Positions 1 to 22,913 are shown, counted from the stretch's first letter. The stretch: 64,000 bases of DNA from an uncultured Acidimicrobiia bacterium (GCA_963847455.1 CAWKAG010000034.1:126604-190603); one strand, 5' to 3'. The notes: generated from the letters alone by a model not told the origin. Translations and numbers: made by a program.

Positions 1-77
1 GGAGGAGTAATCGTCGGGCTTCAGTTTACGATTGCAGCGCTGATCATGGACCATCTCGGTGGACCCCGAGGAGGAGA

Positions 78-1227: not shown

Positions 1228-1276
1228 GTTTCTTTCAACGGATTCGGACACTGCCTGGCTTAATCCGGCGAAGATT

Positions 1277-2294: not shown

Positions 2295-2484
2295 TCGGGT
2301 GCAGTCTGGAGCGAGCTCCCTAGTGACACTGAGCCAAGTGCATTCTGGCGGTCGATCCTCCGCGGAGGCGCTGCTCGAGGGCCAGGATGTATAGTTCTCC
2401 GCGGTACTTACGCAAGGCCGCTCGGAGGTCGGATTACACAATGAGAAGCGCATGGCCTAGCTCCTCCGTGGATCCGTCGAACCG

Positions 2485-4823: not shown

Positions 4824-4827
4824 AACG

Positions 4828-5898
4828 ATGGCAGGCACGGTTCACATCGTAGGGGCGAGGCCGAATTTTATGAAGGCCGGACCGGTGATCGCGGCATGTC
4901 GAGAGCGCGGGCTTGAGTCGCACCTGGTCCACACCGGCCAGCATTATGACGTACGGATGTCGCAGATCTTCTTTGATGAGCTTGGCTTGCCTGTGCCCGA
5001 CATGAACCTGGGCGTTGGGTCGGGAAGCCACGCTGAACAAACCGCTGCCCTGTTGACTGGACTCGAAGCGGTCTTTCTCAAACTTGAGCCTGATCGAATT
5101 GTTGTGTATGGCGATATCAACTCGACATTGGCCGGTGCGCTTGTGGCGTCCAAAATGCAAATTCCGATCGGGCACGTAGAGGCTGGTCTGAGAAGCTTCG
5201 ACCGATCTATGCCCGAGGAAGTCAACCGGGTGGTTACAGATGCCCTGTCAGATCTGCATTTTGTGACCAGCGAAGAAGCGGTTGGCAATCTTGCCAGGGA
5301 GGGAATTCAGAGCGAAGGGGTCCACTTCGTCGGGAACCCGATGATCGATTCCTTGCTCAGATTTCGTGATTCGTTCGATACCGACGGAGTGCGAACCAGG
5401 TATGGGATTCCCGAGAGATATGCAGTGGCGACGCTCCATCGTCCGGCCAACGTCGACGATCCGCTGACGGCAGCCCGTCTCGTTGCCGGACTGGTGCGAG
5501 CGGCAGCGATCTTGCCGGTCGTCATGCCGCTCCATCCCCGGGGCCGAGCGGTCCTCGAGGAGCAGGGCCTTGGTGTGGTCCCGAACCTGCAGGTCGTCGA
5601 ACCGCTTGGTTATGTCGATTTCATGTCGCTCGTCGCCGGGGCGAGCGTGGTGTTGACCGACTCGGGTGGTATCCAAGAGGAGACCACGATTCTCCGAGTC
5701 CCGTGTCTCACCATGCGGCCAAATACCGAGCGTCCGATCACTGTAGAGCTCGGAACAAATCGGCTGGTCGGATCTGACCCGGATCTTGTTGAGCAGGGGG
5801 TTCTAGACGCTCTGGAACCATCCCGGCCCGTGGATGTCCCGCCGTTGTGGGATGGTCGCGCCGGGCAGAGAATTGCCGACGTCTTGGCGGCAGTCTGA
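4828..5898 (+). CDS. wecB: UDP-N-acetylglucosamine 2-epimerase (non-hydrolysing)
   Basis: The N-terminus HIVGARPNFMKAGPVIAA, the motifs HTGQHYD and DSGGIQEE, and the length (356 aa) all match the WecB/MnaA family. Confidence 0.9.
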   Translation: MAGTVHIVGARPNFMKAGPVIAACRERGLESHLVHTGQHYDVRMSQIFFDELGLPVPDMNLGVGSGSHAEQTAALLTGLEAVFLKLEPDRIVVYGDINSTLAGALVASKMQIPIGHVEAGLRSFDRSMPEEVNRVVTDALSDLHFVTSEEAVGNLAREGIQSEGVHFVGNPMIDSLLRFRDSFDTDGVRTRYGIPERYAVATLHRPANVDDPLTAARLVAGLVRAAAILPVVMPLHPRGRAVLEEQGLGVVPNLQVVEPLGYVDFMSLVAGASVVLTDSGGIQEETTILRVPCLTMRPNTERPITVELGTNRLVGSDPDLVEQGVLDALEPSRPVDVPPLWDGRAGQRIADVLAAV

Positions 5899-5936
5899 AC
5901 CGGAAACCCCCCGTCGCCGCGAAAGCCGGGCCAGTG

Positions 5937-6678
5937 CCTATTTGTTAGCGGCCTGCTGATAGGCGCCAACAACTTCAGCGGCTGGACCGAGGGCTCGGAT
6001 CTGGCCGTTTTCAAGCCAAAGCGCTCGATCGCAGAACTGGGCCACGCTAGCGAGGCTATGAGACACAAAAACGATGTGCCGGACCGCTCAAGGAGGTCTC
6101 GTCATCGCCTTGCATGCTCTTACCACGGAAGGATTCGTCGCCGACCGACAGGATCTCATCGAGCAACAGGATTTCTGGGTCGAGAGCCATGCCAACCGAG
6201 AAGGCGAGTCGCGAGAACATGCCCGTTGAGTACGTTTTGACGGGCCGCTCTATCGCGTCCTCCAGGCCGGCATAGCTGACGATGTCATCAAAGCGGCTGC
6301 TCGATATCTGCGCTTTTCGCATCCCGCCCGCAAGACCTCCGAGGTACACGTTCCTCCGACCGGACAGCTCTGGGTTGAATCCAACACCGAGCTGCAGCAG
6401 GGTCGACGTTGTGCCGTTCGAGCACCGCCTTACCTTCGTCCGGGCGTAGGGTGCCCGGCCAGTACTCGGAGCAGCGTGCTCTTCCCTGCCCCATTCCGAC
6501 CGATTACGCCGAAGGCCTCACCAGGGTCCACGCGAAACGAGACGTCCGTGAGGGCGAGTACCTCGGCGGTCTCGCGGTGGCGCAGGCGGCCCAGGCTTCG
6601 GCGGACGGTCGGCTTTCGGTCGACATATGGTCGGAAGCGGACGCTGACGTTTTCGACCAAGATGGCCGGACGGCTCAC
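5937..6678 (-). pseudogene. ABC transporter ATP-binding protein of the polysaccharide/teichoic-acid exporter type (Wzt/TagH/KpsT-like); at least 3 frame changes are needed to read it
   Basis: Walker A ([16 protein letters not shown]) is in frame 6430-6678. [12 protein letters not shown] is in a second frame. GFNPELSGRRNVYLGG, the signature YSTGMFSRL and Walker B (LLLDEILSVGD) are in frame 6056-6349. The C-terminus (CDRALWLENGQIRALGPAAEVVGAYQQAANK) is in a further frame ending at 5937. Confidence 0.8.
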
Positions 6679-7499
6679 AGGTGCCTCACAATCCGGCTCT
6701 CGTACTTGATGAACGTCCCAACGCCGACCAACCCGACGATGACAGCAGTTATCGCGGATGTAAGAAACAGGCCGGGCTCAAGGGGATCACCCGAGCAGGG
6801 CCGCTCGGTAGACACCAACGATGCTCCACATCGGGTTCAAGAGCATCACTTTCTGGATCGGTCTCGGACAGGTTCTCCATGAACTCGATCGGCCAGATGA
6901 TCGGGCTGAGATAGAGCCAGAGCCTGTTGATGTAGGGCAGGATGTTGTTGATGTCGCGAAACGGAACGGCCAGCCGTGCGGTGAGCGCACTCAGCCCGAG
7001 GTTGAAGACAAGATGGGCAGGAACGATGAAAAGGATGAGCCAGAAATGGTTGTTCAGGTTCGCCGAACCCTCCCGGAATCGCTACGGCGTAGAGGACGAC
7101 CAACGACGCGAGGAAACCCACGCCTGCTTCGATGAGGTTGGCGATGGGGAGAATCAGGCGGGGGAATTTGATGTTGGCAAGCAGTTTCGAGTTCTGGAGG
7201 ATGCTGTTGGCCCCTCCCGTCATGGCCTGACTGGTGAAATGGAAAACGAACATACCTGAGAGCAAGTAACTCAGGTCCCGATCTGACGCGAAGAGGATGC
7301 CAAAGACCAGGTAGTACACGAGGCCCAGGAGCAGTGGGTTGATCACCCACCAGAGGAGCCCCAACGCCGTTGAGGCGTTCCTTGCCTTCAGGTTGCCCAT
7401 CGCCAGATACCAGGCGAATTCGCGGCGGCTCCATAAGCTGCGAAAATAGGTGCTCGTCCGCGCCAAGCGCGATCGGCTTTGTGTGAGGAGGGCAGACAT
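6675..7499 (-). pseudogene. ABC-2 type polysaccharide exporter permease (Wzm/TagG/KpsM-like); at least 2 frame changes
   Basis: The N-terminal 150 aa match an ABC-2 permease (FRSLWSRREFAWYLAMGNLKARN...WWVINPLLL). The frame then degenerates after VLYAVAIPGG. The conserved C-terminus LLNPMWSIVGVYRAALLG and the final [38 protein letters not shown] lie in two other frames. The stop codon overlaps the ATPase GTG start. Confidence 0.7.
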
Positions 7500-7565
7500 A
7501 GCTTGAGCATTGTAGGAGCACGTACCGCTCGAACGCGAAATCGCTTGGGCGAACTGCCCGGCCCG

Positions 7566-8804
7566 TTAGGCCTGGATTACCCGGAGTACCTCGTCTACTC
7601 GATCTGAATACGTTTGCCCTTCGGCTATCCAGGCCGGGCCGCGCTCGGCGGCAGCATCAAGCACCGTCGGGTCCGACAAACCCTGGCTGATCAGATGGTG
7701 TGCTTCGTTGGCGTTCGAGGCGACCTGTACGAGTCCGTGAGGGACGTAGGTGCCAAGGGCGGCGGAAGGTCCGCTCACCACATATGCACCGCACGCCAGG
7801 AGTTCGAAGATCCGCCTCGAGCACATGGTCGTGCTGGCAGTCACGCTGTTGACGTTTAGGGCCACCTTGTAGCGGCGATACATCTCCACGGTTTCGAGAT
7901 ACGTCAGGCGCCCTCGAACGTGCGGTTGGTACTTGGCGGGCCAGGCGAACCGACTGTCGGTGCCTCCAAACCGGTCGAAGATGTCGAGATCGAAAGCGAG
8001 TGCAGGCGCGATGATCAACTCCATCTGAGCGCGGCGGTCGGGGAGTTTGGCGGCGTAGTAGCCGCCTGCGAAAGCCACGCCTTCGGTGCGCTGACTGAGG
8101 GAAGCCGGGGGGTAGTGGAGGCTGGGTTGGGCAGCGAAGGGAAGCAGGCTGACCGGTATTCCTGGAACATGACGTTCATACCGTTCGAGGCTGTCCAGGT
8201 CCACGGTGAATATGTAGTCGAACAGCCGGGCCGTCTCGATGAATATTTCGAAGTTGCTTGGATCTTCCTTGTTCCAGAACACCGTCGGAATGTTGTGTCG
8301 CTTGCACCACCCGACGACCTCTTGAAGGGTCGCCGAGCTGCTGCCGAACCTGGCAAGTTCCCCGGCCCAGCCACCGCCTGCTCCGCTAAAGGCGCTTTCG
8401 ACAAAGAGCATCTCGGGCTGATGCGCTTCCAGATTTGATAGCCAATTCTCTCGGCTCAGGTTAACCATGGACCATTCCGGCCCGAATGTCTGCTCAGTGA
8501 ATTCGTCGACGATCGCCGCGACGCGAACTGATCGTCTCGGGGGAGCCGTCTCAGCATCATCGGGATCAGCCACGGCCGGGCGGTCGTCAGCCGCCGGCTC
8601 CGCATCAGATTTGCGGAAGCGTGATCGGCGTTCACTCCGAGCTGCCTCCAGCCTGTTGCGCAGCGTTTCTCGGTCTGCTTCCAGTTTGCGGATCCGATCT
8701 CGCTGTGCGGCGTTTTTAGCCGCAAGCGCATCGATGTGACTTTGCAGCTGGGCCAAGTATTCGGCTGCACGCTCGGTGGACATGTCCGAGAGGGGATCGC
8801 TCAT
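7566..8804 (-). CDS. CgeB-family glycosyltransferase (DUF3880 + Glyco_trans_1_2) with an N-terminal coiled-coil
   Basis: The N-terminal 80 aa are a heptad-rich coiled coil. VFWNKEDPSNFEIFIETARLFDYIFTVD and the C-terminal FELLACGAYVVS match the CgeB spore-maturation-protein-like family. It ends with an ATG start at 8804. Confidence 0.6.
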   Translation of the reverse strand: MSDPLSDMSTERAAEYLAQLQSHIDALAAKNAAQRDRIRKLEADRETLRNRLEAARSERRSRFRKSDAEPAADDRPAVADPDDAETAPPRRSVRVAAIVDEFTEQTFGPEWSMVNLSRENWLSNLEAHQPEMLFVESAFSGAGGGWAGELARFGSSSATLQEVVGWCKRHNIPTVFWNKEDPSNFEIFIETARLFDYIFTVDLDSLERYERHVPGIPVSLLPFAAQPSLHYPPASLSQRTEGVAFAGGYYAAKLPDRRAQMELIIAPALAFDLDIFDRFGGTDSRFAWPAKYQPHVRGRLTYLETVEMYRRYKVALNVNSVTASTTMCSRRIFELLACGAYVVSGPSAALGTYVPHGLVQVASNANEAHHLISQGLSDPTVLDAAAERGPAWIAEGQTYSDRVDEVLRVIQA

Positions 8805-8887
8805 GGTTGAACAGTGTAGGAACGGAATCGGCGTCGAACGGACTTCGCCTAGGTCAAGCCTTGTGTCTATTGTGCCGATGGGTATTC

Positions 8888-10057
8888 ATGGACGGACGAA
8901 CCAAACGACCGCACGCGCTGGTCGGCCTGTTTCTTGTCGTGCTGCTCGCCATACCACAGGCGGCGTTTGCGACAGGATCGGCTTATGCGCCTGCTGGACT
9001 CAACGAAGACAATGGCATCTACGAGATGTACTTCCCGGTCATCGGTGATGTGAACTACTCCGACTCGTTCGGAGCTCCCCGCTCGTCAGGTCGTACGCAT
9101 GAAGGCAACGACCTCATGGGCTACAAGATGCAGCCGGTTATTGCGGTCGCAGATGGAACCGTCGGTGGGATCTATCCGGAACCGGGCGGCTGGTTTCAGG
9201 GCGAGGGATCATGCTGCGCCATGACCCTTGAGCATGACGACGGCTGGTCGTCCTGGTACATCCATCTCAACAACGACACCGAAGACACTGACGACGGACT
9301 GGGATGGGGATTCGCCGAGGGCATTGCCCCCGGCGTACACGTGGTCGCTGGACAACTCATCGGGTGGATCGGCGATAGTGGGAACGCTGAAGCCTGTAAC
9401 TGCCCCCACGTGCACTTCGAGCTTCGCACCCCCGACGGAACCGCGATCGATCCGTACCCACACCTCCAGGCTGCCACCGTGCTGACGGAGGCCGGCGGGG
9501 ATCCAGTCGATCATGGGGTCTTTCGAGATGATGATGGATCGGTCCATGAGCTGAACATCAATGCCCTTGCCAACCGGGGGATCACCAAGGGGTGCAACCC
9601 GCCTGACAACGACCGGTTTTGCCCCACCCGCCAGCTGACCCGCGGCGAAATCGCCGCTTTCCTCCGGCGATTCCTAGCGCTTCCGGCCACGGAGGTCGAC
9701 TACTTCGTAGACGATGGAACGTCGATGTTCGAGGGCGACATCAACGCCCTTGCGGAGGCAGGTATCGCGTTCGGGTGTTCGGAGGAGGATTACTGTCCGA
9801 ACGCTCCACTGCGACGCGAAGAGATGGCGGAACTGTTGACCCGAACGTTCGGGTTCGCCGTGCCGGACGGCGCCGACAGCTTCAACGATGACGATGCCAG
9901 CCAGTTTGCGGGTTCTATCGAGGCGATTGCCGCGGTTGGTGTGACCCTGGGCTGCAACCCACCTGAGAATGATCGTTTCTGCCCGCAACGAACCCTGATC
10001 CGGGCTGAAATGGCCTCGTTCATGATGCGGGCCATCAACCTGCAGGAAACCGGTTAG
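8888..10057 (+). CDS. Secreted M23 (LytM-type) metallopeptidase with three C-terminal Cys-containing SLH-like repeats
   Basis: It has a signal peptide (MDGRTKRPHALVGLFLVVLLAIPQAAFA) and M23 motifs (HEGNDL, HVHFEL). It carries three repeats, F-x-DD-x-GS-x-HE-x-I-x-A-x-A-x-x-GI-x-GCNPP-x-NDRFCP-x-x-x-TRGE-AAFL. Confidence 0.8.
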   Translation: MDGRTKRPHALVGLFLVVLLAIPQAAFATGSAYAPAGLNEDNGIYEMYFPVIGDVNYSDSFGAPRSSGRTHEGNDLMGYKMQPVIAVADGTVGGIYPEPGGWFQGEGSCCAMTLEHDDGWSSWYIHLNNDTEDTDDGLGWGFAEGIAPGVHVVAGQLIGWIGDSGNAEACNCPHVHFELRTPDGTAIDPYPHLQAATVLTEAGGDPVDHGVFRDDDGSVHELNINALANRGITKGCNPPDNDRFCPTRQLTRGEIAAFLRRFLALPATEVDYFVDDGTSMFEGDINALAEAGIAFGCSEEDYCPNAPLRREEMAELLTRTFGFAVPDGADSFNDDDASQFAGSIEAIAAVGVTLGCNPPENDRFCPQRTLIRAEMASFMMRAINLQETG

Positions 10058-11476
10058 GTCGAGAGAGCTCTCGTAGAGCTTGATGAGCTTCTGGGACTCG
10101 ACCGTCCAGTTGTACTGACGGGCGGCAACCTTGGTTGCCTCCACGAACTGCTGTTTGTCAGCCAGGATGGTTCTGGCGGCCTCAGCGATGGCGGTCGGGT
10201 CGGCGGGATCGCAAGCGATGCCCACCTCCGTTTCTCGAACGACCCGTCCGATTTCGGGCGAGTCAGAACCGATCACCGGCACGTTGGCCATGATGTACTC
10301 AAAGAGTTTGTTCGGCAGGCAGGTGTAGTAGCTGATCGATGAGTTGATGATATTCGCCATCCCGATGTCGGCGGCGGCAGTCCAGAACAACAGTTCATGA
10401 TTGGGGATTGGCCCGAAAAACTTCACCCGATCGCCAATATTGCGCTTAACCACGTCGGCCTCTAGCGCTGGTCGGTGGTAGCCGTAGCCGACCACTACGA
10501 GAACGGCGTCATCGATCATCAGTGTCGCTTCCAGGGCCTGTTCGATGCCACGGTTCTCCTGGATCGAACCTTGATAAAGCAACAGCGGGACATCACGCGC
10601 GATCCCGAGTTCGGCCCTCAGGTCCCAGACCGGAACATGCTCGTCGTATTCGGGAACGTTTATGAGTTCGATCGAGAGTTCTGGAATCGATCCATAAAGC
10701 TTTTCAACGAATGGAATCCAATACGGGCTAGCCATGATGAGCGCATCAGCCTTGGGTAGTCCGCGCCGCTCATTCCACATCGCCCACTTACGCCACTTGC
10801 TGTCCATCCGGTTACGTTCGGTTGCCAACTCGTGCGAGTCGTAGACGAGCTTGGCTCCGGTGGCTTCGGCGCATTGCCAACCGATATAGAGGGTGTTGAG
10901 ATCGTGGGAGTGAAACACGTCTGGGTCGATCTCTAGTCCGATGGCGATCATCCGTTTGTTGATCGCCCACGTTTTGAGTGCCAGACCCTGACGTCCGAGT
11001 ACGGCTTTGACCGCTCGGAATCCGAAACGAGCGGTGTGCGCAAAGCCGCGCAAGATCGGGGTAGTTATCGCGGCCCATGTCTTGGTGGCGAGCGAGGCTT
11101 TCTCAACTGGGGTGGCGGTCGGACTTGGGGCGGCGGAGCGGTTGGCTCCCGGCGTGGCCGTCGAGGCCGGGACCACCGCGGATAGCTGGGCTTGTTTGGC
11201 GACGTCAACCGGTTCTCCGGTGAGTTTGGCGTGGCGGGTTTCGATGCTTCCTGCGTACCGACCGGCAACTTTGTTCAGGGTGGCCAGCCCAAAGTGCACC
11301 CGCGACACCCGGCGGACATGGATTCCATCCTGGGTGGTTTCCTGCTCGGCCGTTACCCCCGGCACGTGAATGGCGACGACGGTGACGTCGTGACCGGCCT
11401 CAATGAGGGTTCTGGCTTCTTTCGTGACCCTTGCGTCATATTCGAACGAGTTCTTCACGAACATGCAGATCTTCAT
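9674..11476 (-). CDS. Glycosyltransferase family 4 with a low-complexity insertion in the N-domain; the last ~125 codons of the ORF lie antisense within the M23 gene, so the true stop is uncertain
   Basis: The GT-B C-domain is LLLYQGSIQENRGIEQALEA...NKLFEYIMANVPVIGSD. The recognisable domain ends near 10060 (KLIKLYESS). The downstream ORF tail has no GT features and overlaps 8888-10057 on the opposite strand. Confidence 0.7.
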   Translation of the reverse strand: MKICMFVKNSFEYDARVTKEARTLIEAGHDVTVVAIHVPGVTAEQETTQDGIHVRRVSRVHFGLATLNKVAGRYAGSIETRHAKLTGEPVDVAKQAQLSAVVPASTATPGANRSAAPSPTATPVEKASLATKTWAAITTPILRGFAHTARFGFRAVKAVLGRQGLALKTWAINKRMIAIGLEIDPDVFHSHDLNTLYIGWQCAEATGAKLVYDSHELATERNRMDSKWRKWAMWNERRGLPKADALIMASPYWIPFVEKLYGSIPELSIELINVPEYDEHVPVWDLRAELGIARDVPLLLYQGSIQENRGIEQALEATLMIDDAVLVVVGYGYHRPALEADVVKRNIGDRVKFFGPIPNHELLFWTAAADIGMANIINSSISYYTCLPNKLFEYIMANVPVIGSDSPEIGRVVRETEVGIACDPADPTAIAEAARTILADKQQFVEATKVAARQYNWTVESQKLIKLYESSLDLTGFLQVDGPHHERGHFSPDQGSLRAETIILRWVAAQGHTNRGNRLDRTRKLAGIVIVEAVGAVRHGEPERSGQQFRHLFASQWSVRTVILLRTPERDTCLRKGVDVALEHRRSIVYEVVDLRGRKR

Positions 11477-12520
11477 GTCGTCGCCTCCCTGATCGTTTCC
11501 GCTGCCGACTTGAGACGGATCCGGAAGGTGGCGACAGCGTCGTCCATGGAAACAACGGCGGTGTCCTTGGTGGACTCCAGGTGGTTGACCATATCGTAGA
11601 GTCCTCCGAGATCGTTGGTGGCGAGAACGTAGTCCTCCATATTCACACTCTGGGCGAAATCTCGGACTTTCGGCCGGTACTCAAGGCCAATGAAGGGCGT
11701 GCCGGTCGCCGCAGCCAACACGGCGCCATGCAGCCGCTCGGACACAACGAGGCCCGATTCGGCCAGCAGTTGGACCGCCCCACTTTCGTCGGCGTACGCG
11801 GCCACGTACGGCAGTTCGGGATGTCCGGCCGCACGCATGATCTCGAATATCGGCCGGTCGTCGGCGGGGAAACACGACAGGAACCGGACGTCACGTCCAT
11901 CTGCGACAAGTCGACGAGTTAAGTCGGCGAGTGCCGAATACACGGCCTCGTCACTCTCGCCCCACAGCTCGCCGTTCGTCCGTGCCGGGCTGATGGTGAC
12001 CAGTCCCGGTATCTGTGGGCCCCGCATCGTCGGGTCGTTCAACCAGCAACGCTGGATCGCCAACGATTTCGAGATCGGTCTTGAGGCCCCAGTCGGTAAG
12101 GATCTGCGCCGAGGTCGGTCCTCGTACTCCGACGTAGGCGCAGGTCGATAGGAAATCAACCCACTGCTCGGCCGGCTCGGTCAAACCCCAGAAAGACGGG
12201 TTGGCGACCCCGGTGCCGAACACGGCTCGTTCGATCCTCGGGGAGTCTTTGGTCTGTAACCAATCCAGATAGACCTTGCGATTGATGAGGGTTCCACCGC
12301 CGAGCAGGAGCAGGCCGGTCGGATCGCCCGTCGTGGTGAAATCGCCCCAGTCCATCAGGTCGCGTCACCGCGTTGAGCATGATCTCGTCCCCGAAGTTCT
12401 CCTTCCCCACCCATCCGACGTAACGAATTTGGGGTCGGTCGGAATGTTGTGGATCAGGGCGAGTGGCTGTCTTGGGTGGTGTCTGGAATGACGACTTTGT
12501 GAGCCGCGCTTTGGCGAATC
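11473..12520 (-). pseudogene. Polysaccharide pyruvyl transferase (CsaB/PS_pyruv_trans-like) domain; it is read across 3 frames and is probably continuous with the upstream GT2 as a single fusion gene
   Basis: The N-terminal motif IRYVGWVGKENFGDEIML is at the 3' end of frame 12156-13121. LLLLGGGTLI...VGVRGPTSAQIL...GDPALL is in frame 11951-12355. ERLHGAVLAAATGTPFIGLEYRPKVRDF is in frame 11473-12159. The stop overlaps the start of the downstream GT4 (ATGA). Confidence 0.65.
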
Positions 12521-12724
12521 GACCGAGCGTGGGAATCGCCCTTACCGGATGGGCCTGGATCTCCGACACCAGCTTGCTCCGGTCGGATTCGTAGGCGGGA
12601 TAATCGATCGGCAGATCGTCAGCCGGGGCTCCACTCGGTAGAGCCACGAGCGCGTCGTTTAGATGGACGTTGTCGCCCCAACCCCGCACCGCCGTGAAAG
12701 CGCGTGTGGCCGTGTCGGCGCTAC

Positions 12725-14046
12725 TCAGCGCTTTGGCCCATTCTCTTGATCGCACCCAGGTGAAGAGCGGGAGACCAGACGGTGCCCAGGCTGCGTCGAT
12801 GGCTGCGGTGTCCGACTCGTTTTGGTAGGCAAGCGGTCCGTCGGGTCCCGGGACCTGATAGCCAATCGAAGCCGATGCCAAACGCGGTCGGCTATCGAAG
12901 CGCCTAACCAATCTACCCCCGAGCCGGTGGTCGGGGGTGGCCCATCCGTGCAAGGTGGCCACATATTGGCCACGAGCCTTGCCAAGGGCTTCCTCAAGGG
13001 TGCCGCCAGGGTTACTCGCGGGTCGGCTTCGTTGGCAGCCGCGAAACGGTCGAGGGCTTCGGATTCGCCTGCCCAGATGGTCTCGAAGTCGGTGAAGTTC
13101 TGGCGGCGCAGGACGGTCCACAGCGCCTCGATTCTCGCGTCAACCACCGGTGAGATCACCCAGGTGACTTTGGGGCGCACGTACAGGTGTCCCTCGACGG
13201 ATCTCCGATAGAAACGGTGCGGGATCCGGTTGATGATCTGGGCATCGTTTTCTTGTCTTGCCGCGTCGCGCCAGCCGGCTTCGTCATCGATCTGTGTCTG
13301 ATGAAACATGATGGCTTCGTCCTCGGGGACGATGAAGGCACCGGCTTCTGAGAGTCGCCAACCCAACTCTGTGTCTTCGCCACCCCAACGGTTGAATGAC
13401 TCGTCGAAGCCGCCAACTGCCAGGAATAGCTCTTTTGCACCGAGAAGTTGCTCGACACGAGCGCCCGGAAAGCTTCGTCGCCGAACCGCAATCTGGTCGA
13501 CCGTCGGTAGAACTTCAGCCGAAAATCCTCGGAGGCGGCGACGTCGACGCTGAACGGTATGCCGTCTGCGATGAGCGTGTCGACGGTGATCGCTGTCGTA
13601 TCGACATGGTGGCGGGAGCCGATAACCACGAGGTTGCTAGCCCGGTTGTGCCAGATGGCATGCCGGGTCAGGAGGTCGGGCGCCGGCATACAATCGGCGT
13701 CGAGGAAGACCAGAACCGATCCCGATGCGTGTTTGGCTCCCAGGTTTCTTGCCCGACCGGCCCCATACCCTTCGTGCTCCTGTCGAACGACCGTCACCGC
13801 CAGGTCGGTGCGCCCAGCAATCCCGGCCACTGCGACCCCAATGTCTTCATCCGATCCGTCATCGGCGACCACGACATCCCAGTTTCCCCGGTAATCCTGG
13901 TGGGCCAGAGCGGCGAGAGTCCTTTGGAGAAGCTCGGCCCGATTGAAGACGGGGATCACCACGGTGACCACTGGCAGGTCAGCGTCGCTCTCGACATTCA
14001 GGAGAGGGGCGTAGTCGTTCTCGGGACCGGTGAATGGGTGCATCAT
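12725..14046 (-). pseudogene. Glycosyltransferase family 2 domain, frameshifted near 13330; its frame then runs without a stop into the pyruvyltransferase N-terminus
   Basis: VTVVIPVFNRAELLQRTLAALAHQDY...VVADDGSDED and FLDADC are in frame 13156-14046. The GT2 C-terminal motif (GEDTELGWRLSEAGAFIVPEDEAIMFHQ) is in frame 12725-13366. Frame 12156-13121 then links through to the CsaB-like domain. Confidence 0.65.
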
Positions 14047-14341
14047 CAGGTGGCGCGGTAGCTCGCAGCTTTCAGATCGATTCGTATGAGTGTGCCCGAC
14101 TCGGTGATTTCGGCTTGCGGCTGGTGAGCAGCAAGGTAGGCATCAAGGGCTAGTCGGTCGGGCGCATGAGCATAGATGTAGCGCCTCGCCGCCAGGAGAA
14201 TAGCCTCCGGGGGAGTGGTGCCGCGAAACGCCACTGCCTCATAGGAGCCAGGACTTGGCGTCGGCGACGTTGTCCCACACTTCTCGTCCGGGCAGCGTCA
14301 ACGCCGTGCCAGGTGCGGTCAGCACTCGCTGCACCTCGACG

Positions 14342-15770
14342 TCACGGTCGATGAAGGACTGCAAGTGGGTCCTCTGCGGGAAGTCGATCGGCGGGCGGTG
14401 GAACCTTTTCGGCGGCTTTGAGACCGGCCATGAGTTCGTCGACCCGGTGGTCATAGAGGTGGGCGCCGGCCACATGGGACCGTGCTTGGTCGACGATCCG
14501 TTGCATGCGATCTTGATCGGCCAGGAGCGACTGGAACTGGTCGACGAAGTCAGTTTCGAGATGTAGGAAGTGTTCACCGGGCGTCAAGATTTGGTCTAAG
14601 CCAGGGATGGGCTGGGTCACCAACAGCGCTCCTGCCCCGATGGCTTCGAGCACGCGCATCGTTATGGGGAAGTGGCGCGTTCCGCCTTCGTTCGGGATGA
14701 TGCGGGCTTGCTCATAGAGCTCAGCCATGCGAGAAGCCGATACGCCCTCCTCAAAAGCAGTCGAAGGTAGGGCAGCTTCAAGGCTGGTCGTTAGGTGGCC
14801 CCGGAACGCGTAGGGCCCGCCTCCCCGAATGTAGGCGCCCACCATTGCGACGTCGTACCGGCGGGCGGCGATTGGCGTTGATCCATCGAAGAGGTCGGGT
14901 GCCATCCCGAACGGGAAGCGCTGGACCGGCTGGCGAAAGAAATGGGCGAGGTGCCACGAGTGCGCCAGGAGGATCAAGTCGGCCCGATATCGGTCGGCGA
15001 GTCGCAGGTTGGCAGCGAGGTGGTGTTCACCGTGATGCGCCCAGAACCCGATCGGGATGGGTGGCGTTGCGCCGCTTACCTGGATCTCCGGGTAGGGGCC
15101 TTCGACGAAGAGAATCGCGTTGGTGTCAGGCGCCAGGGTGTTGAAGTCGACGGCGTCGGTGTATAGGTCGACTGCGACCCCAGCGCGCTTGAGGGCCGCC
15201 TCAAGATACTTGCCGGGGTTGGAGTCGGTCTTGCGGTAGGCCAGAGCGATCCGGGTCCCCGCGTGGCGCCCGGGGGCGGGCCGGTATGGCTCCGGACTGG
15301 CTCTCGGGGGTGTGAAACGGTAATCCGGTCCGGATCGGTCGGCTCGCCGAGGGGGTTGACGGGGCCATGTCGATGAGATCCAGTGGTCCAGCTGGATTCC
15401 ATTGGGGGGCTCTCGCTACGAAGGCAGATGTCTGAGCTGCCGCTTCGGCAGCCACCTGAACCGCTGCTTCGGTGGTCGGCACAATCAATTCTGGATCGGA
15501 CTCGACCGTCCGCCGAACGAGAGCCGAATCGCGCCGTGAGTTGCGTGATATCTGCGTCTGAAGCTTCCTTAACAAACGATCGCGAAGCGAGGTTCCCGGC
15601 GGCTGGTTTGGGGATACGAGTGCCTCGTCGAAGGGCCGATCCAAGTCACCGTTTTGATGGCCGATTCGGACTAACGTGACGTCGTGTCCTGCGCGCGTCA
15701 GCTGTTCAATAAGGACCCGTGCTCGGGGGTCGTTTTGATAGTCGTTGACCGCAAGAACCGTGATCCGCAT
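14342..15770 (-). pseudogene. Second CgeB-like glycosyltransferase: an N-terminal Rossmann-like domain in one frame and DUF3880/Glyco_trans_1_2 in another
   Basis: The 5' frame (15201-15770) is MRITVLAVNDYQNDPRARVLIEQLTRAGHDVTLV. The 3' frame is open from about 15410 to 14342 (TRIALAYRKTDSNPGKYLEAALKRAGVAVDLY...RVLEAIGAGALLVTQP). It has no ATG/GTG/TTG start before 14977. The frames switch near 15250. Confidence 0.45.
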
Positions 15771-15824
15771 GGAGGAGCATGGTACCCGGGCTGACGAGAG
15801 GAGTCCCCGTCGAGCGATGCGCCG

Positions 15825-16857
15825 CTAGCTGAGTGCCCTGCGCAAGAACGCCGCGATCTGGCCTCTGGTCAGCGTTCCCTCGGGGCAGAAGCGATCGTTG
15901 CTCGGCGGGTTACATCCCTTGGTGATACCGGATACGCCCAGCGCGTTGATGTCCGTCTGATGCACCGAGTTGGTGTCGTCACCGAACTGATCGGCGACGT
16001 TGGTTGACAGGCCGAGGGCCCGCACGAAGAAACTTGCCATTTGCCCACGGGTGAGCGTCTGCTGTTCACAGAAGAAGGTGTTGGCGGGCGGATTACACCC
16101 GAGAGTGATACCGGCCTCAGCGACGGCGTTGATGTTCGCCTCGTGGGGTGATCCGTCGTCGTCGGTGAAGAAATCTGTGCCGGTGCTCGGAAGGTCAAGC
16201 GCCAATGCCATCATGGTCGCCATTTCACCACGGGTAACCGGCCGATTCGGGCAATACGAGCTGGAATCGCAGCCAAGGGCGATGCCACTCGAGACCAGCC
16301 AGGCGATGTCGTCGGCGAAGACGGTGTTGGATGCGTCGTTGGCGGAACTCAGGAGGGAGAGGCTGGTCAGTGGTTCGGCGTCGGCCGCACTGCCCCGGGC
16401 TTTCATGAAGATGACCGTGATGAAGGTCTGTCCGTTGCTCGGCGGTCTTGGTCGAGACCCCGATGTGGGACCAGTCGCCGAGGATGTTGGCCCGATGGCC
16501 CGGCGAGTCCATAAAGGCATTGTGGAGGACCGGGATGTTCGGGCCCATCCCGACGTTTTCGCCAAGGCTCGACCATCCACTGCTTACGATCTTGCTGAGG
16601 TCGGCCGTATGGAAGATGGTTCCCCTGGCGACCTGACGGGCAGTCTGGACCGATGCATCGTCCTCGAGATCCCAGTGACGGGTGAGACCGGGCAGGCCGT
16701 TCGCCGCTCGTTCTCCGTTGATGAGGTCGATCATGTCGCCGTCCTGAATCGGGGATGCGACCGCAGGGAGTGGTGTCGGGATGATCGAAAGCGCGAGGAA
16801 GGCGGTCAGCGCAACCGCCGTCAGGTAGATTCCCCTACGCCCAAAGGAAAACTTCAT
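15825..16857 (-). pseudogene. Secreted CAP/SCP (YkwD-like) domain protein with four C-terminal SLH-like repeats; one frame change near 16430
   Basis: The signal peptide and CAP motifs (HWDLEDDASVQTARQ, GENVGMGPN, SPGHRANIL) are in frame 16225-16857. Four GCNPP/GCDSS-type repeats are in frame 15825-16580. Confidence 0.65.
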
Positions 16858-16933
16858 AGAGTGGTTATCGGTCCGGCGGCCGGAATACTTAAGGCTCAGG
16901 TAGGAACAATCTCACCGATAGTGTTGACCATCA

Positions 16934-18580
16934 TGTTTCGATTTACGACAGGAATCACGACTGCTCTAGCGATCCTTGCCTTGACGGCACTTGTGGCAGG
17001 TGCCGTCCCGCCCGGTGGCACGTTCATCGATGACGACGGCAACGTCCACGAGGCCAACATTGAGGCGCTCGCGTGCTGCTGGCATTACTCGCGGATGTAA
17101 TCCGCCAGTTGGTGATCGTTTCTGTCCCGATGGGACCGTGACCCGGGGCGAAATGGCGGCATTCTTGTCCCGGGCGCTCGGGCTGACCGAGCGAGCGTCT
17201 GATCCGTTCGGCGATGATGACGGTACGTTGTTTGAGGCCGACATCGAACGGATTGCGGCGGCCGGTATCACTCGCGGTTGTAATCCGCCCGCCAACGACC
17301 AGTTTTGTCCGACCCGGCCGGTCACGAGAGCCGAGATGGCAGCGTTTCTGGTGCGCGCCTATGGCTATAGCGACCGGGCCGACGGACGGTTCACGGACGA
17401 CGACGGCTCCATCTTCGAAGCAGATATTGAGCGCCTGGCAGCGGCCGGCGTCACCTTGGGATGTAACCCACCGGTGAACGATCGCTACTGCCCGTCCAAG
17501 CGGGTGAGGCGAGATGAAATGGCTAGCTTCCTCGTCCGGGCCGAAGGCTTGACCCCGATCCCGGTCCCGCCCCGGTTGACGCCAACGTTGGACGCCCTCC
17601 CGTTTTCTTTCGACGCACCGATCCAGGTGACCGGCCCGCCAGGGGACGGTCGGGTTTTTGTGGTCGAACGATCTGGCAAGGTCCGGGTCATCAGCGACGG
17701 CAAACTGCTTACCGACCCTTTGATAGATCTAACGGGCATGGTTATCCAGGGCGGCGAACGGGGACTGCTTGGCCTGGCTTTTCACCCCGACTTCGCTACC
17801 AACGGACTGGTTTACGTCTCGTACTCCGCGGAGACCTCGTCACTCTCGGCCGACCACGCTTCGGTGGTGGAAGAGTTCAAGGTGTCCGGTGACCAGGTCG
17901 GTCCCAGCTCGGGTCGGGTTGTTTTTACGACCTTGCAGCCTTATGCCAATCACAACGGCGGCATGATCATGTTCGGTCCCGACGGGTACCTGTATCTGGG
18001 TCTTGGCGACGGCGGCTCGGCTTTTGATCCCGACCGAAACGGTCAGAACGCCAAGACTGCCCTTGGCTCGATGGTCCGCATCGACACGGTCAACACCACG
18101 TCGAGTAATTGGGCGATCGGCCTGCGCAACCCCTGGCGGTGGTGGATTGATGGATCCGACATGTATATCGCCGATGTCGGACAAGGTTCGCGCGAGGAGA
18201 TCTCGGTGGTCTCGACGACGGATACCGGTTTGAATCTCGGCTGGGTGCGATTCGAGGGCAGCCAGTGCACCGGGCTCGGCAGCTGCAGCACCAGCGGCCT
18301 GACGTTTCCCGTTTTGGAATATACCCACGCTGAGGGTTGCTCCATCACCGGAGGGGTGGTGTACCGGGGTGATCTGACCCAATTGAATGGACACTTCCTC
18401 TACGGCGATTACTGCTCTGGCTGGATTCGCTCGATCCGGGTCGTCGGAGGGTCAGTTGTTGCCGAGGGTGACCTCTCTACGCTCGGGTCAAGCTTTGGAC
18501 TCGTGTCTTTTGGTCAGGACGGTCTTGGGAATACTTACGTCATCCGCGGCGGAACTGTCTACGAACTCGTCGGGCGATGA
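16934..18580 (+). pseudogene. Secreted protein with three SLH-like repeats fused to a glucose/sorbosone-dehydrogenase-like (PQQ-dependent) beta-propeller; one frame change near 17075
   Basis: The signal peptide MFRFTTGITTALAILALTALVAGA and the first half-repeat are in the frame ending at 17100. The remainder is in frame 16991-18580, with GSDH motifs (GDGRVFVVERSGKVRVI, GGERGLLGLAFHPDF, YANHNGGMIMFGPDGYLYLGLGDGGS). Confidence 0.7.
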
Positions 18581-18654
18581 TGCCGACATTCGGATTGATG
18601 GCAATAAGTTTGTACAGTGACTCTGTCCTGGGCGGGCGGAATCCGACCTGAGGA

Positions 18655-20548
18655 GTTGTGTTGAAACACAGAAGGATCCTTCTCCTTTTTGTCATGGTCG
18701 TGAGCACGCTGGTTCCGGCGATTCCTGCGCAAGCTCAGACCTATCACCCCAACGGTGACGTTCACGGGTGGTGGGTACGGGCACGCCATCGGGATGAGTC
18801 AGTACGGCGCCAATGCCATGGCTTCCGAGGGTATGACCACGGCAGACATCATCAACTACTACTACACAAACGTTGCGACCGTGAGCCACACCGCTCTCTA
18901 CGAATCGCCACATCCGCTGAGTTCTGCAAACCCGAACATCTGGGTCGGGCTGGCTCAGGATGTGAACTCGATCACGTTTTCGGTCCCGGCTGACGCCAGG
19001 CGGGCCGGTAGATCTGTGTCAAGCGAACGACGGCGGCTTGCCGTGCCCCCGCGAGGAGGCAATCCCTCAGCCAGGTGATGTGTGGGAGTTGCGACGTGCC
19101 GAAGGGGTGACCAACAAATGTCGAATTCCGTCGGATCAGCCCGACCGCGACAGACGTTTACGACAGGAGACTGCCGAGCCAGCGCCACGCTGGGGTGGGT
19201 CGGGGCAGTGCCGAATACATCAATGTGGACGGTACGGATTACCGGCATGGAACGTTGCGCATGCGTCAGGGGACGTCCAGGTAACAACCGGCCAATTCCA
19301 CGTTTCGCTCGAGCTTCCGATCGAGGAGTACTTGCTCGGATTGCGTGAGGTGCCGTTGAGTTGGCCAAACGCGGCACTGGAGGCCCAGGTTGTCACCGGC
19401 CGCACGTACGCCCTTGAGAAATTCAGCCGTTTCTACGACGCGACTCGACAACCGGGAACTACGACTTCATCAAGAACTTCCGGCGGTCCTATTGCTACTG
19501 CCATGTCCTTGACAGCACCCTTGATCAGAACTACCGAGGCATGGACAACGAGCAACTCAACGGCGACTCGTATCCGTCTTGGGTTCTGGCGATCGCGAGT
19601 ACGTCAGTCCGACGTGATTGCCTATCAAGGCGCGTCTGATCCAGGCGTTCTATTCGTCGTCGACGGGTGGCAACACTGAGGATAGCGAAGACGTCTTTGT
19701 GGCGGCGCTTCCGTACTCCAGGTCGGTTCCCGATCCCTGGTCATTGACCTCGGCGAATCCGAAGGCAGCGTGGACGAACACTGTCACAGCGACGAAAGAT
19801 CGCTTCGGTGTACGGATTCTCTGAGATCAGCAATGTCACGTTGGTGAACCCGGCTCCGAATGCGTATATGACCATCACCGGCACCAAGAACGGATCCCAG
19901 GTCACAGAGAGCGTGAGCATCGCCAAGAAGTACGCACAGTTGGGGCTGTCGGCCCCGTCGGTCTCGGGGTTGTCCTATGACCCTTACGGTGGCGAGAGTC
20001 CGTATGCGTTTACCGATATCAGTAACTCGGTTCATTGGCAGGACATCAACGAGATTGCCGAGCGAGGCATAACGCTCGGATGCAACCCGCCGTCCAACAC
20101 ATTGTTCTGTCCAACCCGTGAGGTGACCAGGGGACAGATGGCCGCGTTCCTGACTCGCACGCTCGGGTTGGTCGAGCGGGCACCAGACCCGTTCACCGAC
20201 GACGACGGCACGTTGTTTGAGGCAGACATCGAACGGATCGCCGCCGCTGGTATAACCCTGGGCTGTAATCCGCCGGCCAACGACCGCTTCTGTCCCGATC
20301 GTTTTGTTACCCGCGCCCAGATGGCGGCGTTTCTCAGCCGGGCGTACGAACTTGTTGAGCGGGCCCCTGATCCGTTCGTCGACGATGACGGCTTGATCTT
20401 CGAAGCGGACATCGAACGGTTGGCCGCCGCCGGTATCACGCTTGGCTGTAATCCTCCCGCCAATGACCGGTTCTGTCCCAACAACATCGTCCTTCGACAA
20501 CAGATGGCGTCATTCCTGATCAGAGCCATCAATTACGAGGGCGGCTAG
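18655..20548 (+). pseudogene. SpoIID/LytB-family domain protein with three C-terminal SLH-like repeats; at least 3 frame changes and an unusual motif order
   Basis: It has a signal peptide (MLKHRRILLLFVMVVSTLVPAIPAQA) followed by GGGYGHAIGMSQYGA...INYYY (18755-18900). EEYLLGLREVPLSWPNAALEAQVVTGRTYAL lies at 19320-19440 and FYSSSTGGNTEDSEDVF...PYSRSVPDPW at 19640-19740. The frame from 19808 carries three GCNPP repeats. Confidence 0.5.
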
Positions 20549-20573
20549 CGACACACCGCTAGCATCCGCCTTC

Positions 20574-21860
20574 GTGGACAACCCTGTTGAGTTTTTTGAA
20601 GGAAATAGTTGGACTTGTGGCGTCGTCGGCCTCGGATACGTTGGTCTGCCGCTAGCTCTGACCGCCGTTTCCAGAGGCCATGCGGCGATAGGCTTCGATA
20701 CGTCAGAAGACCGGGTCCGTCGCCTCGGTGCCGCCTCATCGCCGATCGACGACGTCTCAGATGCGGATCTGGCGGCTGCGTTAGAAGCCGGCCTGTCGGT
20801 AACGGGCGATGCCGCCGATCTCAAGCTTGCCGACGCCATTTTTATCTGTGTGCCTTCGCCGCTCGGCCGGAATCGCCAACCGGACATGTCCTACATTCAA
20901 ACTGCGGCGACCACTGTGGCGAGGATCGCCCGACCCGGGCAGCTGATTTCGCTCGAATCGACCACCTATCCGGGTACCACCGATGACATCCTGGTAACCG
21001 CGCTCGCCGATGTCGGCTTGGAAGTTGATCGGGACGTCTACGTCGCCTTCTCTCCGGAACGAGTGTCGCCAGGCGACGAACTCAAAACTGCCGAGATCCC
21101 CAAGGTCGTCGGCGGAGTCAGCGCTTTGTCGACCGCGGTGGCAACGGCGGCCTACTCCAAGTTGGTGCCCAACGTGCACGCCGTTTCTGACGCCAAGACG
21201 GCGGAGATGGCCAAGCTGCTCGAAAACACCTACCGGGCTGTCAACATCGGCCTGATCAACGAGATGGCCCAGCTCGCTCACGAGATCGACATCGATATCT
21301 GGGAAGTCATCGAGGCGGCCGCGACGAAGCCATTCGGGTTTCAAGCGTTCTTTCCGGGCCCGGGAGTGGGTGGGCACTGTATCCCGCTCGACCCTCAGTT
21401 CCTGGCCTGGCGCGCCAAGGAAGCGAACTTCACCACCCGTTTCATCGATACGGCCGAGCAAGTCAACGAAGGCATGCCGGCTTGGACCGCCCGACGAGTC
21501 GGGTCGATGCTGAACAAACGTGGGTTGCCGATTTTTGGGACCCGCATCCTCGGTGTGGGGATTTCCTACAAGCCGGACATCGCCGACGATCGTGAATCGG
21601 CGTCAGCCCGGGTCCTGGTTGAGTTGAGGAATCAGGGCGCCGAAATCGAGGTGTACGATCCGCTGGTGCCACCGGACCGGATTCGTCGGCACGGGTTTGA
21701 ACCGTCCACATCCTTCGACGGCTACTCGGCCGCCTTGATCTTGACCGACCACCAGGGCATCGATTACAACGCCATCTCGGCTTCGGTGCCGGTCGTCTTT
21801 GACACCCGGAATGCCTATCGGCGGCGCGGTATCGAGGTCGACAACGTAGAAGTGCTGTGA
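20574..21860 (+). CDS. Nucleotide-sugar dehydrogenase (UDP-glucose/GDP-mannose dehydrogenase family); a UDP-ManNAc or UDP-GlcNAc 6-dehydrogenase is plausible
   Basis: The Rossmann motif VVGLGYVGLP, the catalytic region GFQAFFPGPGVGGHCIPLDP and the length (428 aa) fit the family. It lies in a WecB-containing cluster. Confidence 0.85.
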   Translation: MDNPVEFFEGNSWTCGVVGLGYVGLPLALTAVSRGHAAIGFDTSEDRVRRLGAASSPIDDVSDADLAAALEAGLSVTGDAADLKLADAIFICVPSPLGRNRQPDMSYIQTAATTVARIARPGQLISLESTTYPGTTDDILVTALADVGLEVDRDVYVAFSPERVSPGDELKTAEIPKVVGGVSALSTAVATAAYSKLVPNVHAVSDAKTAEMAKLLENTYRAVNIGLINEMAQLAHEIDIDIWEVIEAAATKPFGFQAFFPGPGVGGHCIPLDPQFLAWRAKEANFTTRFIDTAEQVNEGMPAWTARRVGSMLNKRGLPIFGTRILGVGISYKPDIADDRESASARVLVELRNQGAEIEVYDPLVPPDRIRRHGFEPSTSFDGYSAALILTDHQGIDYNAISASVPVVFDTRNAYRRRGIEVDNVEVL

Positions 21861-22913
21861 TCGCCGGGGTCTTCTCGGTGGTGCATCATGCCGACGATGC
21901 CCGAATTCGCGAAAAGCTGATCCCTACGCTGGCTACCGATTTCTCCGTCGAATATCATGCCAGAACTCCGGCTCCGGATCAGATCGAGGGCTTCACCTGG
22001 TATCCATTTCGAGGACCACGGATCATCAGGAATCTGTCGCTCCTGCGCCGGCTACTGAGTCGGAAACTTGACGTGGCTGTGCTGGTCGACCCGGAAACGT
22101 TTTTGGCCGGCATCCTGGCGAGTCGTCGCACCAGGGTCGTGTTTGATATTCACGAGAACGTTCCTGCCCAGATCGCCACGAAGAACGTTCCGTTCAAAAA
22201 GATCCTTCGCCGGGTGGCGGCTTCGATCCTGCGGGCGGCGGAACGGGCCGGGACGGTGGTTCTCGCAGAGCCGGGCTATGCCGAGCTCTTCAGCCAGTCC
22301 CACCCGGTGTTCGAGAATTTTCCCCGATGGGAAGCGATGCCGTCCATGGCGCCAAGTGATGGCTCGGTCATCTACGTCGGCGACATCACCGAGCAACGAG
22401 GGGCCCTCCATCTCGCCGAGGCAGTCGCCGGCACGGGCAAGCATCTCGTAATGGTGGGCCGTTGTTCTCCCGAGTTGGCGACCCGGATCGAATCAGTCGT
22501 GCGCAATGGCGGGGCGACGGTGGAGCTGACCGGGCGCCTGCCCTGGGCGAGCAGCGATGGTTCGCCTCGCTTCTGCTGCGGTCGCCGTTTCACCGTTGAC
22601 CGACACGCCCAATTATCGACACTCCCTGCCAACCAAGGTTCTGGAATACCTCGGTCTGGGCATTCCGGTCGTGGCGACCAATCTGCCAGGAACGACCGAG
22701 GTGCTGACCGGCCGCCCGGGAGTCACCCTGGTCGAGTCAGGCGATGTCCCAGCGCTCCGCCAGGCGATTATTGCTGCCAGCCATGCCGAGGTTCGCGAAT
22801 CGGCCCAGCGTTCGTCGAATATCGTCCGATCCGAGTTCGAGTGGCCGACGGATCGAGTGAGGAGCTTCTATTTGGCGTTGGTTGGCGACCCCGGTCTCAG
22901 TCCTGACAGGTAA
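21857..22913 (+). pseudogene. Glycosyltransferase family 4; one frame change near 22560
   Basis: The N-domain is in frame 21857-22560. The GT1 C-terminal motif (LPTKVLEYLGLGIPVVATNLPGTTEVL) is in frame 22557-22913. Confidence 0.7.

Follow-up and report, generated by a model that had tools for sequence, protein, structure and literature searches.

Four genes with a three-repeat SLH module

The stretch of DNA described here, referred to below as the window (64,000 nucleotides from an uncultured Acidimicrobiia bacterium; GCA_963847455.1, CAWKAG010000034.1:126604-190603), contains four genes whose products combine a signal-peptide-like N-terminus, a passenger domain and a module of three tandem repeats of the S-layer homology (SLH) type, each repeat carrying two cysteines. 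Positions are counted from the first nucleotide of the window, and the four genes, with the scores of their domain matches, are the following:

8888..10057, plus strand: M23 metallopeptidase with a C-terminal SLH triplet (Pfam M23 48 bits, SLH 31.8 bits)
15825..16857, minus strand: CAP/YkwD-like secreted protein with a C-terminal SLH triplet (Pfam CAP 31.4 bits, TIGR02909 YkwD E 1.6e-10, SLH 39.4 bits)
16933..18580, plus strand: signal peptide, N-terminal SLH triplet and glucose/sorbosone-dehydrogenase-type (GSDH) beta-propeller (Pfam GSDH 109.3 bits, SLH 26.0 bits)
18655..20548, plus strand: SpoIID/LytB-family protein with a C-terminal SLH triplet (Pfam SpoIID 31.6 bits, SLH 39.9 bits)

All four passenger domains score above the respective Pfam gathering scores (28.7 for M23, 21.1 for CAP, 25 for GSDH and 23 for SpoIID), the SpoIID match being partial because the gene is frameshifted. 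A preliminary description of this DNA had placed the genes correctly, save that the ATG of the GSDH gene lies at 16933 and not at 16934, and had called their products four secreted cell-wall enzymes. Secretion agrees with the N-termini, which resemble signal peptides in all four proteins. The enzymatic label fits M23 and SpoIID, both peptidoglycan-active families, but not CAP/YkwD proteins or GSDH propellers, which are not known wall enzymes. The M23 gene is the sole intact gene of the four in this sequence; its product starts with the signal peptide MDGRTKRPHALVGLFLVVLLAIPQAAFA, with an alternative TTG start at 8807, and has orthologues of 88% and 81% identity in the syntenic loci L083 and L081 of related genomes, respectively. 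Orthologues of the other three are intact as well: that of the CAP-SLH gene in L081 (333 amino acids), those of the SLH-GSDH gene in L048 (587 amino acids) and L081, and that of the SpoIID gene as P0135 (639 amino acids, 78% identical across the module). A second M23-peptidase paralogue, at 37037-37513 on the plus strand, is 34% identical to the M23 domain of L048 and appears to carry no SLH module.

Twelve repeats, three per protein, were found in the whole 64 kb window by a six-frame motif scan and a hidden Markov model (HMM) built from the repeats, in place of the 14 (three to four per protein) counted initially. The HMM matches only the four gene sites, with per-repeat E-values of 1e-19 to 1e-32:

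9518..10054, plus strand: SLH triplet of the M23 protein; repeats 9518-9694, 9698-9859 (short C-x5-C loop) and 9875-10054 (repeat HMM E 6e-30, 1e-22 and 5e-30)
15831..16340, minus strand: SLH triplet of the CAP protein; repeats 16179-16340 (short C-x5-C loop), 15999-16175 and 15831-15992 (HMM E 2e-20, 2e-30 and 3e-28)
17020..17557, plus strand: SLH triplet of the GSDH protein; repeats 17020-17073 plus 17075-17197 (split by a frameshift), 17201-17380 and 17387-17557 (repeat HMM)
20006..20539, plus strand: SLH triplet of the SpoIID protein; repeats 20006-20182, 20186-20365 and 20369-20539 (repeat HMM; module used for structure prediction)

The repeat period is about 61 amino acids (183 nt), so that the earlier estimate of about 50 has to be raised to about 60, and pairwise identity among the 12 repeats ranges from 29 to 80%. 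The module had been described as the end of each protein; it is C-terminal in the M23, CAP and SpoIID proteins, but N-terminal in the GSDH propeller, where it stands right behind the signal peptide. The consensus first proposed, with GCNPPxNDRFCP at its core, is found at the four genes, and two cysteines per repeat are indeed present in all 12. Their spacing is C-x8-C (CNPPxNDRFC) in 10 repeats and C-x5-C in the remaining two, M23 repeat 2 (CSEEDYC) and CAP repeat 1 (CDSSSYC), which depart from that consensus. That the four modules arose by recent duplication or were homogenized by gene conversion was considered and rejected, their DNA identity being just 67-83% and limited to short stretches. 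An acidic F-x-D-D-D-G turn, absent from canonical SLH domains, opens all 12 repeats (e.g., at 20186-20215) and bears a partial likeness to the DxDxDG calcium-binding loop.

Assignment of the repeats to the SLH family

The SLH scores listed above refer to PF00395 (IPR001119) and all pass its gathering score of 20.8; the same model matches 84 of 90 homologous open reading frames (ORFs; E<=1e-5). In addition, the three-repeat module aligns over its full length with the SLH trimer of Bacillus anthracis Sap (3PYW, 6BT4; phmmer E 5e-7), and a profile of 105 homologues hits the SLH domains of Sap, SbsB, SpaA and OmpM and nothing else, with a best E-value of 1e-14. An AlphaFold2 model of the SpoIID module, built with the homologue alignment, has a pLDDT of 97, a pTM of 0.91 and two helices per repeat. 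With this predicted model as the query, Foldseek returned 15 significant matches from the PDB, all of them SLH trimers, with a TM score of 0.85 and an rmsd of 2.4 A to 3PYW and TM scores of 0.70-0.75 to SpaA, while the next non-SLH fold appeared at E 0.2. Because the PF00395 scores, the match to solved SLH trimers and the predicted fold agree, the repeats are, as far as sequence comparison and modeling can tell, bona fide SLH domains. The SLH-type reading of the preliminary description is upheld on each of these three counts, including the comparison with Pfam SLH that it had proposed, and every significant structural match is an SLH domain and none a fibronectin or PKD fold, which had been named there as competing assignments.

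The same description had spoken of an undescribed anchor family, which is wrong because PF00395 and existing NCBI names already cover these proteins: many homologues are called SLH domain-containing protein, several others just "M23 family metallopeptidase" or "hypothetical protein". A stronger form of this idea, namely that the repeats constitute a new wall-anchor family merely resembling SLH, could draw on the GCNPPxNDRFCP loop and the DDDG turn, both absent from canonical SLH domains, on the weak single-repeat Pfam matches, and on the finding that no model among those scanned in Pfam and NCBIfam is dedicated to the cysteine variant, the sole NCBIfam match being to a model for a Bacillus NEAT protein, namely to its C-terminal SLH triplet. 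We consider it extremely improbable, and already refuted by the Pfam, alignment, Foldseek and profile results, given that whole-protein PF00395 scores exceed the cut-off in all four proteins, that solved SLH trimers can be aligned with the module from one end to the other, that its predicted fold superimposes on 3PYW with non-SLH folds trailing far behind, that Gly29 and Arg43, the residues needed for binding in SpaA, are retained, and that databases already label homologues as SLH. No solved structure of the cysteine variant was among the matches in PDB sequence searches.

As in Sap and in Paenibacillus alvei SpaA (6CWC, 7SV3), each protein carries three tandem repeats of about 55-60 amino acids, which are predicted to fold jointly as a single three-pronged spindle, together with the G-x-x-x-G (Gly29) and TRxE/Q (Arg43) motifs, unrelated passenger domains and a nearby pyruvyltransferase gene. 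Sap and SpaA differ from the modules of the window in that identity is only 18-24%, in the cysteines at positions 30 and 36, the mostly present NPP insertion, the change of Trp13 to Phe or His and the DDDG turn, and in their host, Firmicutes as opposed to Acidimicrobiia.

A cysteine pair added to the SLH loop

The first cysteine occupies SLH position 30, right after the flipping Gly29, and the second occupies position 36, between a conserved Phe/Tyr and Pro (F-C-P). The C-x5-C loop has the canonical SLH length, and the common C-x8-C loop thus corresponds to a 3-residue insertion. The classic core of the domain is therefore not replaced, as had been stated; rather, the loop between positions 30 and 36 gains two cysteines and usually three residues, with Gly29 and Arg43 retained. 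The pair, whose absence from classic SLH domains had also been pointed out, is an almost invariant, lineage-specific addition. Both cysteines are found in 283 of 284 repeats of the best 120 database homologues, and a counting motif for G-C...C is satisfied by 404 of 420 repeat matches from 80 genomic loci plus the window, most of the other 16 being fragments or close variants that keep both residues. Exactly three cysteine loops are present in 116 of 132 further representatives of 50%-identity clusters, and the three-repeat count is exact in 129 of 154 matching ORFs. The pair is kept over loop lengths of 5, 7 and 8 residues. One repeat of L055 (GNNPPDNDEFGP; L055:286-3036) has lost its two cysteines together, and one canonical Cys-free SLH repeat (GYNNGNFGP, of the GYxxGxFxP type) was also found in these genomes. 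Such Cys-free repeats are rare, occurring at L055:286-3036 and L078:1890-2222, and could serve as natural controls in work on what the cysteines do.

It has been established that Actinobacteria make use of disulfides in the proteins they export and that Firmicutes keep cysteine out of theirs (Daniels et al. 2010, PMC2823432), which is the reason why the textbook SLH domain has none. Since the cysteines are kept or lost together and sit in exported proteins of a disulfide-using phylum, the pair most likely forms an intra-repeat disulfide. A metal site or a redox switch instead of a structural disulfide would be in keeping with two nearby features, a conserved His or Phe and the acidic turn (DDDG), but two thiols alone make a poor metal site, the persistence of the pair across loops of different length is staple-like, and export in such a phylum (PMC2823432) likewise speaks against it; we regard this option as very unlikely. 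The pair also represents a clean case of a domain family that acquires disulfides in a phylum with oxidative folding.

Residues of the putative ligand-binding grooves

SpaA binds 4,6-pyruvyl-ManNAc (ManNAc, N-acetylmannosamine) in the grooves between its repeats, for which Gly29 and Arg43 are both required (Blackler et al. 2018, PMC6081394). The equivalent residues, the glycine preceding the first cysteine in G-I-T-x-G-C and the arginine of [TRIL]-R-x-[EQ], are kept in all 12 repeats of the window. Tryptophan at position 13 occurs only in SpoIID repeat 1, and elsewhere Phe or His is found at the Trp position or one residue from it. In three of the four modules the aromatic residue at or near position 13 is His in repeat 1 and Phe in repeats 2 and 3, a pattern suggesting that the three grooves may not be equivalent.

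The adjacent glycan cluster and its conservation

The SLH genes are embedded in a set of genes for glycan synthesis and export, for which the following features were recognized:

4828..5898, plus strand: non-hydrolysing UDP-GlcNAc 2-epimerase of the WecB/MnaA type (PF02350 350 bits; TIGR00236 321 bits against a cut-off of 210)
5900..7500, minus strand: polysaccharide ABC exporter (ATPase and ABC-2 permease, Wzt/Wzm or TagH/TagG type), frameshifted (Walker A and signature motifs in ORF fragments)
7566..8804, minus strand: glycosyltransferase (Glyco_trans_1_2 domain match; syntenic gene of 417 amino acids in L083)
10058..11476, minus strand: GT4 glycosyltransferase (PF00534, PF13439; syntenic genes of 472-474 amino acids in L081 and L083)
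11485..14046, minus strand: GT2 glycosyltransferase fused to a CsaB-like polysaccharide pyruvyltransferase, about 855 amino acids, 4 frameshifts (PF00535 89.9 bits; PF04230 37.4 and 35.0 bits in two fragments)
14055..15776, minus strand: glycosyltransferase (Glyco_trans_1_2), frameshifted (syntenic gene of 564 amino acids in L081)
20574..21860, plus strand: nucleotide-sugar dehydrogenase (TIGR03026 367 bits; nearest equivalogs UDP-ManNAc dehydrogenases, below their cut-offs)

The gene of the GT2-pyruvyltransferase fusion sits between the M23 and CAP genes. Both of its fragments in the window pass the PF04230 gathering score of 25.3, and the intact L048 orthologue of 875 amino acids reaches 60.9 bits over profile positions 1-278 of 280; the best NCBIfam match for the pyruvyltransferase half is the CsaB model TIGR03609. 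The intact fusions (L048:7164-9791, L081:12642-15224 and L083:6563-9133) consist of an N-terminal GT2 domain, a central region with no Pfam match and the C-terminal pyruvyltransferase, in 856-875 amino acids. As in the CsaB pathway of B. anthracis and P. alvei (MnaA-TagA-CsaB), the PF04230 enzyme nearest to CsaB is accompanied by an epimerase of the MnaA/WecB type and surrounded by SLH genes. The epimerase would supply UDP-ManNAc, and it is probable, judging from these domain matches, that the fusion makes a pyruvylated ligand. The suggestion of the preliminary description that the adjacent glycan cluster could make the ligand of the repeats thus becomes plausible, the cluster containing a PF04230 pyruvyltransferase. 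It also holds five glycosyltransferases beyond the fusion and, farther on, a polyprenyl glycosylphosphotransferase.

Much of this arrangement is found in relatives. The block M23-SLH / GT4 / GT2-pyruvyltransferase / glycosyltransferase is present with intact genes in L083 and L081 and mostly recurs in L048. In L083, an intact and syntenic ABC exporter (ABC_tran and ABC2_membrane pair) and another glycosyltransferase lie upstream of the M23 gene; in L081, CAP-SLH and SLH-GSDH genes come after the block; and L048 has an additional M15-SLH gene, a SpoIID-SLH gene followed by the dehydrogenase, and an SLH-GSDH gene. The nucleotide-sugar dehydrogenase gene stands directly 3' of an SLH module in L006, L020 and L046 as well as in L048. 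Upstream of the core, L081:194-9907 encodes a sulfotransferase, a multi-glycosyltransferase protein of 1,525 amino acids and dTDP-rhamnose genes, and the corresponding part of the window (1-8800) an acyltransferase, WecB and the ABC exporter, from which it can be proposed that the glycan backbone probably differs between relatives. Differing flanks of this kind would be expected of a variable glycan. GltB of the window has a 100%-identical database entry (P0253) and the best M23-SLH match is 88% identical; the envelope locus seems either to accumulate differences far more rapidly than housekeeping genes do or to be replaced between strains.

Distribution of the module and its passengers

Acidimicrobiia, an abundant class in samples from soil, freshwater and the sea, are almost entirely uncultured, and to our knowledge their cell envelope is essentially unstudied. 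The source had been characterized as a high-GC actinobacterium; it belongs to the actinobacterial class Acidimicrobiia, with a GC content of about 60%, which is only moderately GC-rich. The database protein identical to GltB of the window belongs to a 90% cluster that bears the name Acidimicrobiia bacterium, and all named relatives of its GltB and M23 proteins come from Acidimicrobiia or Actinomycetota metagenome-assembled genomes. Among GTDB species representatives, at least 564 loci carry the Cys-containing SLH module; nearly all belong to uncultured Acidimicrobiia, often with several copies per genome. A library of 1.84 billion representative proteins (50%-identity clusters) gave 25,072 matches at E<=1e-3, of which 9,658 remained at 1e-10 and 1,978 at 1e-30. 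The passengers in 90 related ORFs comprise GSDH (7), M15 (5), Ig-like/cadherin-like (5), PD40/DPPIV (4), SpoIID (3) and CAP (2) domains, as well as subtilase and polysaccharide deacetylase. The SLH module would be a general display tag. In this respect the system is similar to the SLH exoenzymes of Firmicutes, such as the cellulosome anchors of Clostridium thermocellum and SlhA of P. alvei, where SLH domains likewise serve to display enzymes beyond the S-layer proteins; the passengers are different, being here M23, SpoIID, M15, CAP, GSDH propellers, cadherin-like and Ig-like domains.

A model for wall anchoring and its alternatives

SLH anchoring through CsaB-dependent pyruvylation is textbook knowledge in the accounts of PMC5817068 (citing Mesnage 2000) and PMC6030368. 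SLH domains of some Actinobacteria are mentioned in a review (PMC5817068), and Witwinowski et al. (bioRxiv 10.1101/2021.05.31.446380) noted that SLH/CsaB has been retained in "a few examples within Actinobacteria". In the open-access literature we found no work on SLH domains in Acidimicrobiia or on Cys-containing SLH domains. The SLH anchor itself is therefore known; the lineage-specific cysteine pair appears to be new and so far undescribed, and so does the conserved ligand-synthesis locus centered on the GT2-pyruvyltransferase fusion.

The model that best connects these elements is that each of the four secreted proteins would be held non-covalently on the wall by its module of three canonical SLH repeats. 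A pyruvylated secondary cell-wall glycan would bind in the inter-repeat grooves, which Gly29 and the arginine of TRxE/Q line; this glycan would be built and exported by the surrounding cluster, i.e., by the UDP-GlcNAc 2-epimerase, the glycosyltransferases, the GT2-pyruvyltransferase fusion and the ABC exporter. Within each repeat, Cys30 and Cys36 would be joined by a disulfide, which would staple the loop next to each groove. As a whole, this reading is likely in our judgment.

Several observations weigh against it. Trp13, which stacks on ManNAc in SpaA, is changed to Phe or His here, with the alignment one residue off in some repeats, and the single-repeat Pfam SLH matches are weak, "faint" or missing in precomputed annotation. 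Unlike CsaB, the pyruvyltransferase is fused to GT2, as the C-terminal domain of a protein of 856-875 amino acids, and its scores against the CsaB model (52.8 and 18.4 bits for the window fragments, 79.5 for the L048 orthologue) stay below the equivalog cut-off of 213.1. In a further departure from the CsaB pathway, neither a TagA-type (GT26) ManNAc transferase nor TagO was found in the ORFs scanned, and export probably relies on an ABC transporter. The UDP-ManNAc-dehydrogenase-like gene, in turn, suggests ManNAcA, which is unable to carry a 4,6-ketal. Finally, frameshifts interrupt the CAP, GSDH and SpoIID genes in this sequence, a point taken up in the next section.

Some of these points would also be explained if the SLH module recognized a different ligand, either peptidoglycan itself or a glycan that is non-pyruvylated or not based on ManNAc. 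The altered pocket, in which the change of Trp13 is joined by the 3-residue insertion and a staple beside Gly29, would then mean an altered specificity, in line with a pyruvyltransferase that is GT2-fused and no CsaB equivalog and with the presence of the ManNAc-dehydrogenase-like gene. There are precedents as well, as the SLH domain of OmpM in Negativicutes uses cadaverinated peptidoglycan (bioRxiv 10.1101/2021.05.31.446380) and the binding of SLH domains to peptidoglycan is still debated (PMC5817068). Nevertheless, the residues that hold the pyruvate carboxylate (the Gly29 amide and Arg43) are invariant, and four independent genomes show a gene for a PF04230 enzyme in synteny with SLH genes, so we consider a different ligand of this kind unlikely. 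A bolder proposal, which is offered as a speculation and with considerable doubt, would treat Cys-stapled SLH domains as a distinct subfamily largely confined to Acidimicrobiia, whose locked, longer loop and Trp13 change confer a specificity other than 4,6-pyruvyl-ManNAc, whose ligand comes from the dedicated GT2-pyruvyltransferase fusion, and which serves as the main, possibly redox-sensitive, display system of this class, directing M23, M15 and SpoIID wall hydrolases to the polymer.

Returning to anchoring through a pyruvylated glycan, the results leave the known mechanism of SLH anchoring unchanged. They indicate that Acidimicrobiia use an SLH/pyruvylated-polymer system, so far associated mainly with Firmicutes and diderm Terrabacteria, for a broad display of exoproteins that includes peptidoglycan hydrolases, and they point to one conserved locus that encodes both the synthesis of the ligand and the enzymes anchored to it. 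In practical terms, annotation pipelines under-call SLH domains in these proteins, which an HMM of the subfamily would remedy.

Frameshifts in the locus

The CAP gene contains one frameshift (between about 16340 and 16428), the GSDH gene another, a single extra T near 17074 that lies outside a homopolymer, and the SpoIID gene eight across 1.9 kb. Neighboring genes are also broken: besides the four frameshifts of the GT2-pyruvyltransferase gene, the next glycosyltransferase gene is divided into four frame segments (at least three frameshifts) and the ABC exporter has several. In total, about 17 frameshifts fall within 5900-23000, compared with about 6 in the other 47 kb of the window, where the 4.4 kb gltB gene (38084-42538) is intact. 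The frameshifts are not obviously located in homopolymers, and at 74% identity with 66 gap openings, L083 is too divergent at the DNA level for individual indels to be placed by alignment.

This uneven density could mean that the locus is decaying, in which case the pyruvyltransferase gene and all anchored genes except that of M23 would be pseudogenes and the system non-functional in this organism, and the intact gltB in the same window would fit such local decay. Against this stands the state of the SpoIID gene: of its nine frame segments, most share 75-93% identity with the intact P0135 (46-64% over a few short stretches), and a frame map against that protein shows no in-frame stops and no drop in conservation around the breaks. 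Eight indels in 1.9 kb with no other sign of decay resemble consensus error in a strain-variable metagenomic region, and relatives keep intact genes in the same order. Decay of the locus is accordingly quite improbable in our view, and the frameshifts are most likely erroneous indels introduced by the assembly, which cluster in a surface-glycan locus that varies among strains. The ORF of the GT4 glycosyltransferase (9674-11476, minus strand) extends about 128 codons beyond the stop of its orthologues of 472-474 amino acids and runs into the SLH-coding portion of the M23 gene, which lies on the other strand. The overrun probably stems from a further indel, or from the loss of a stop, near 10058.

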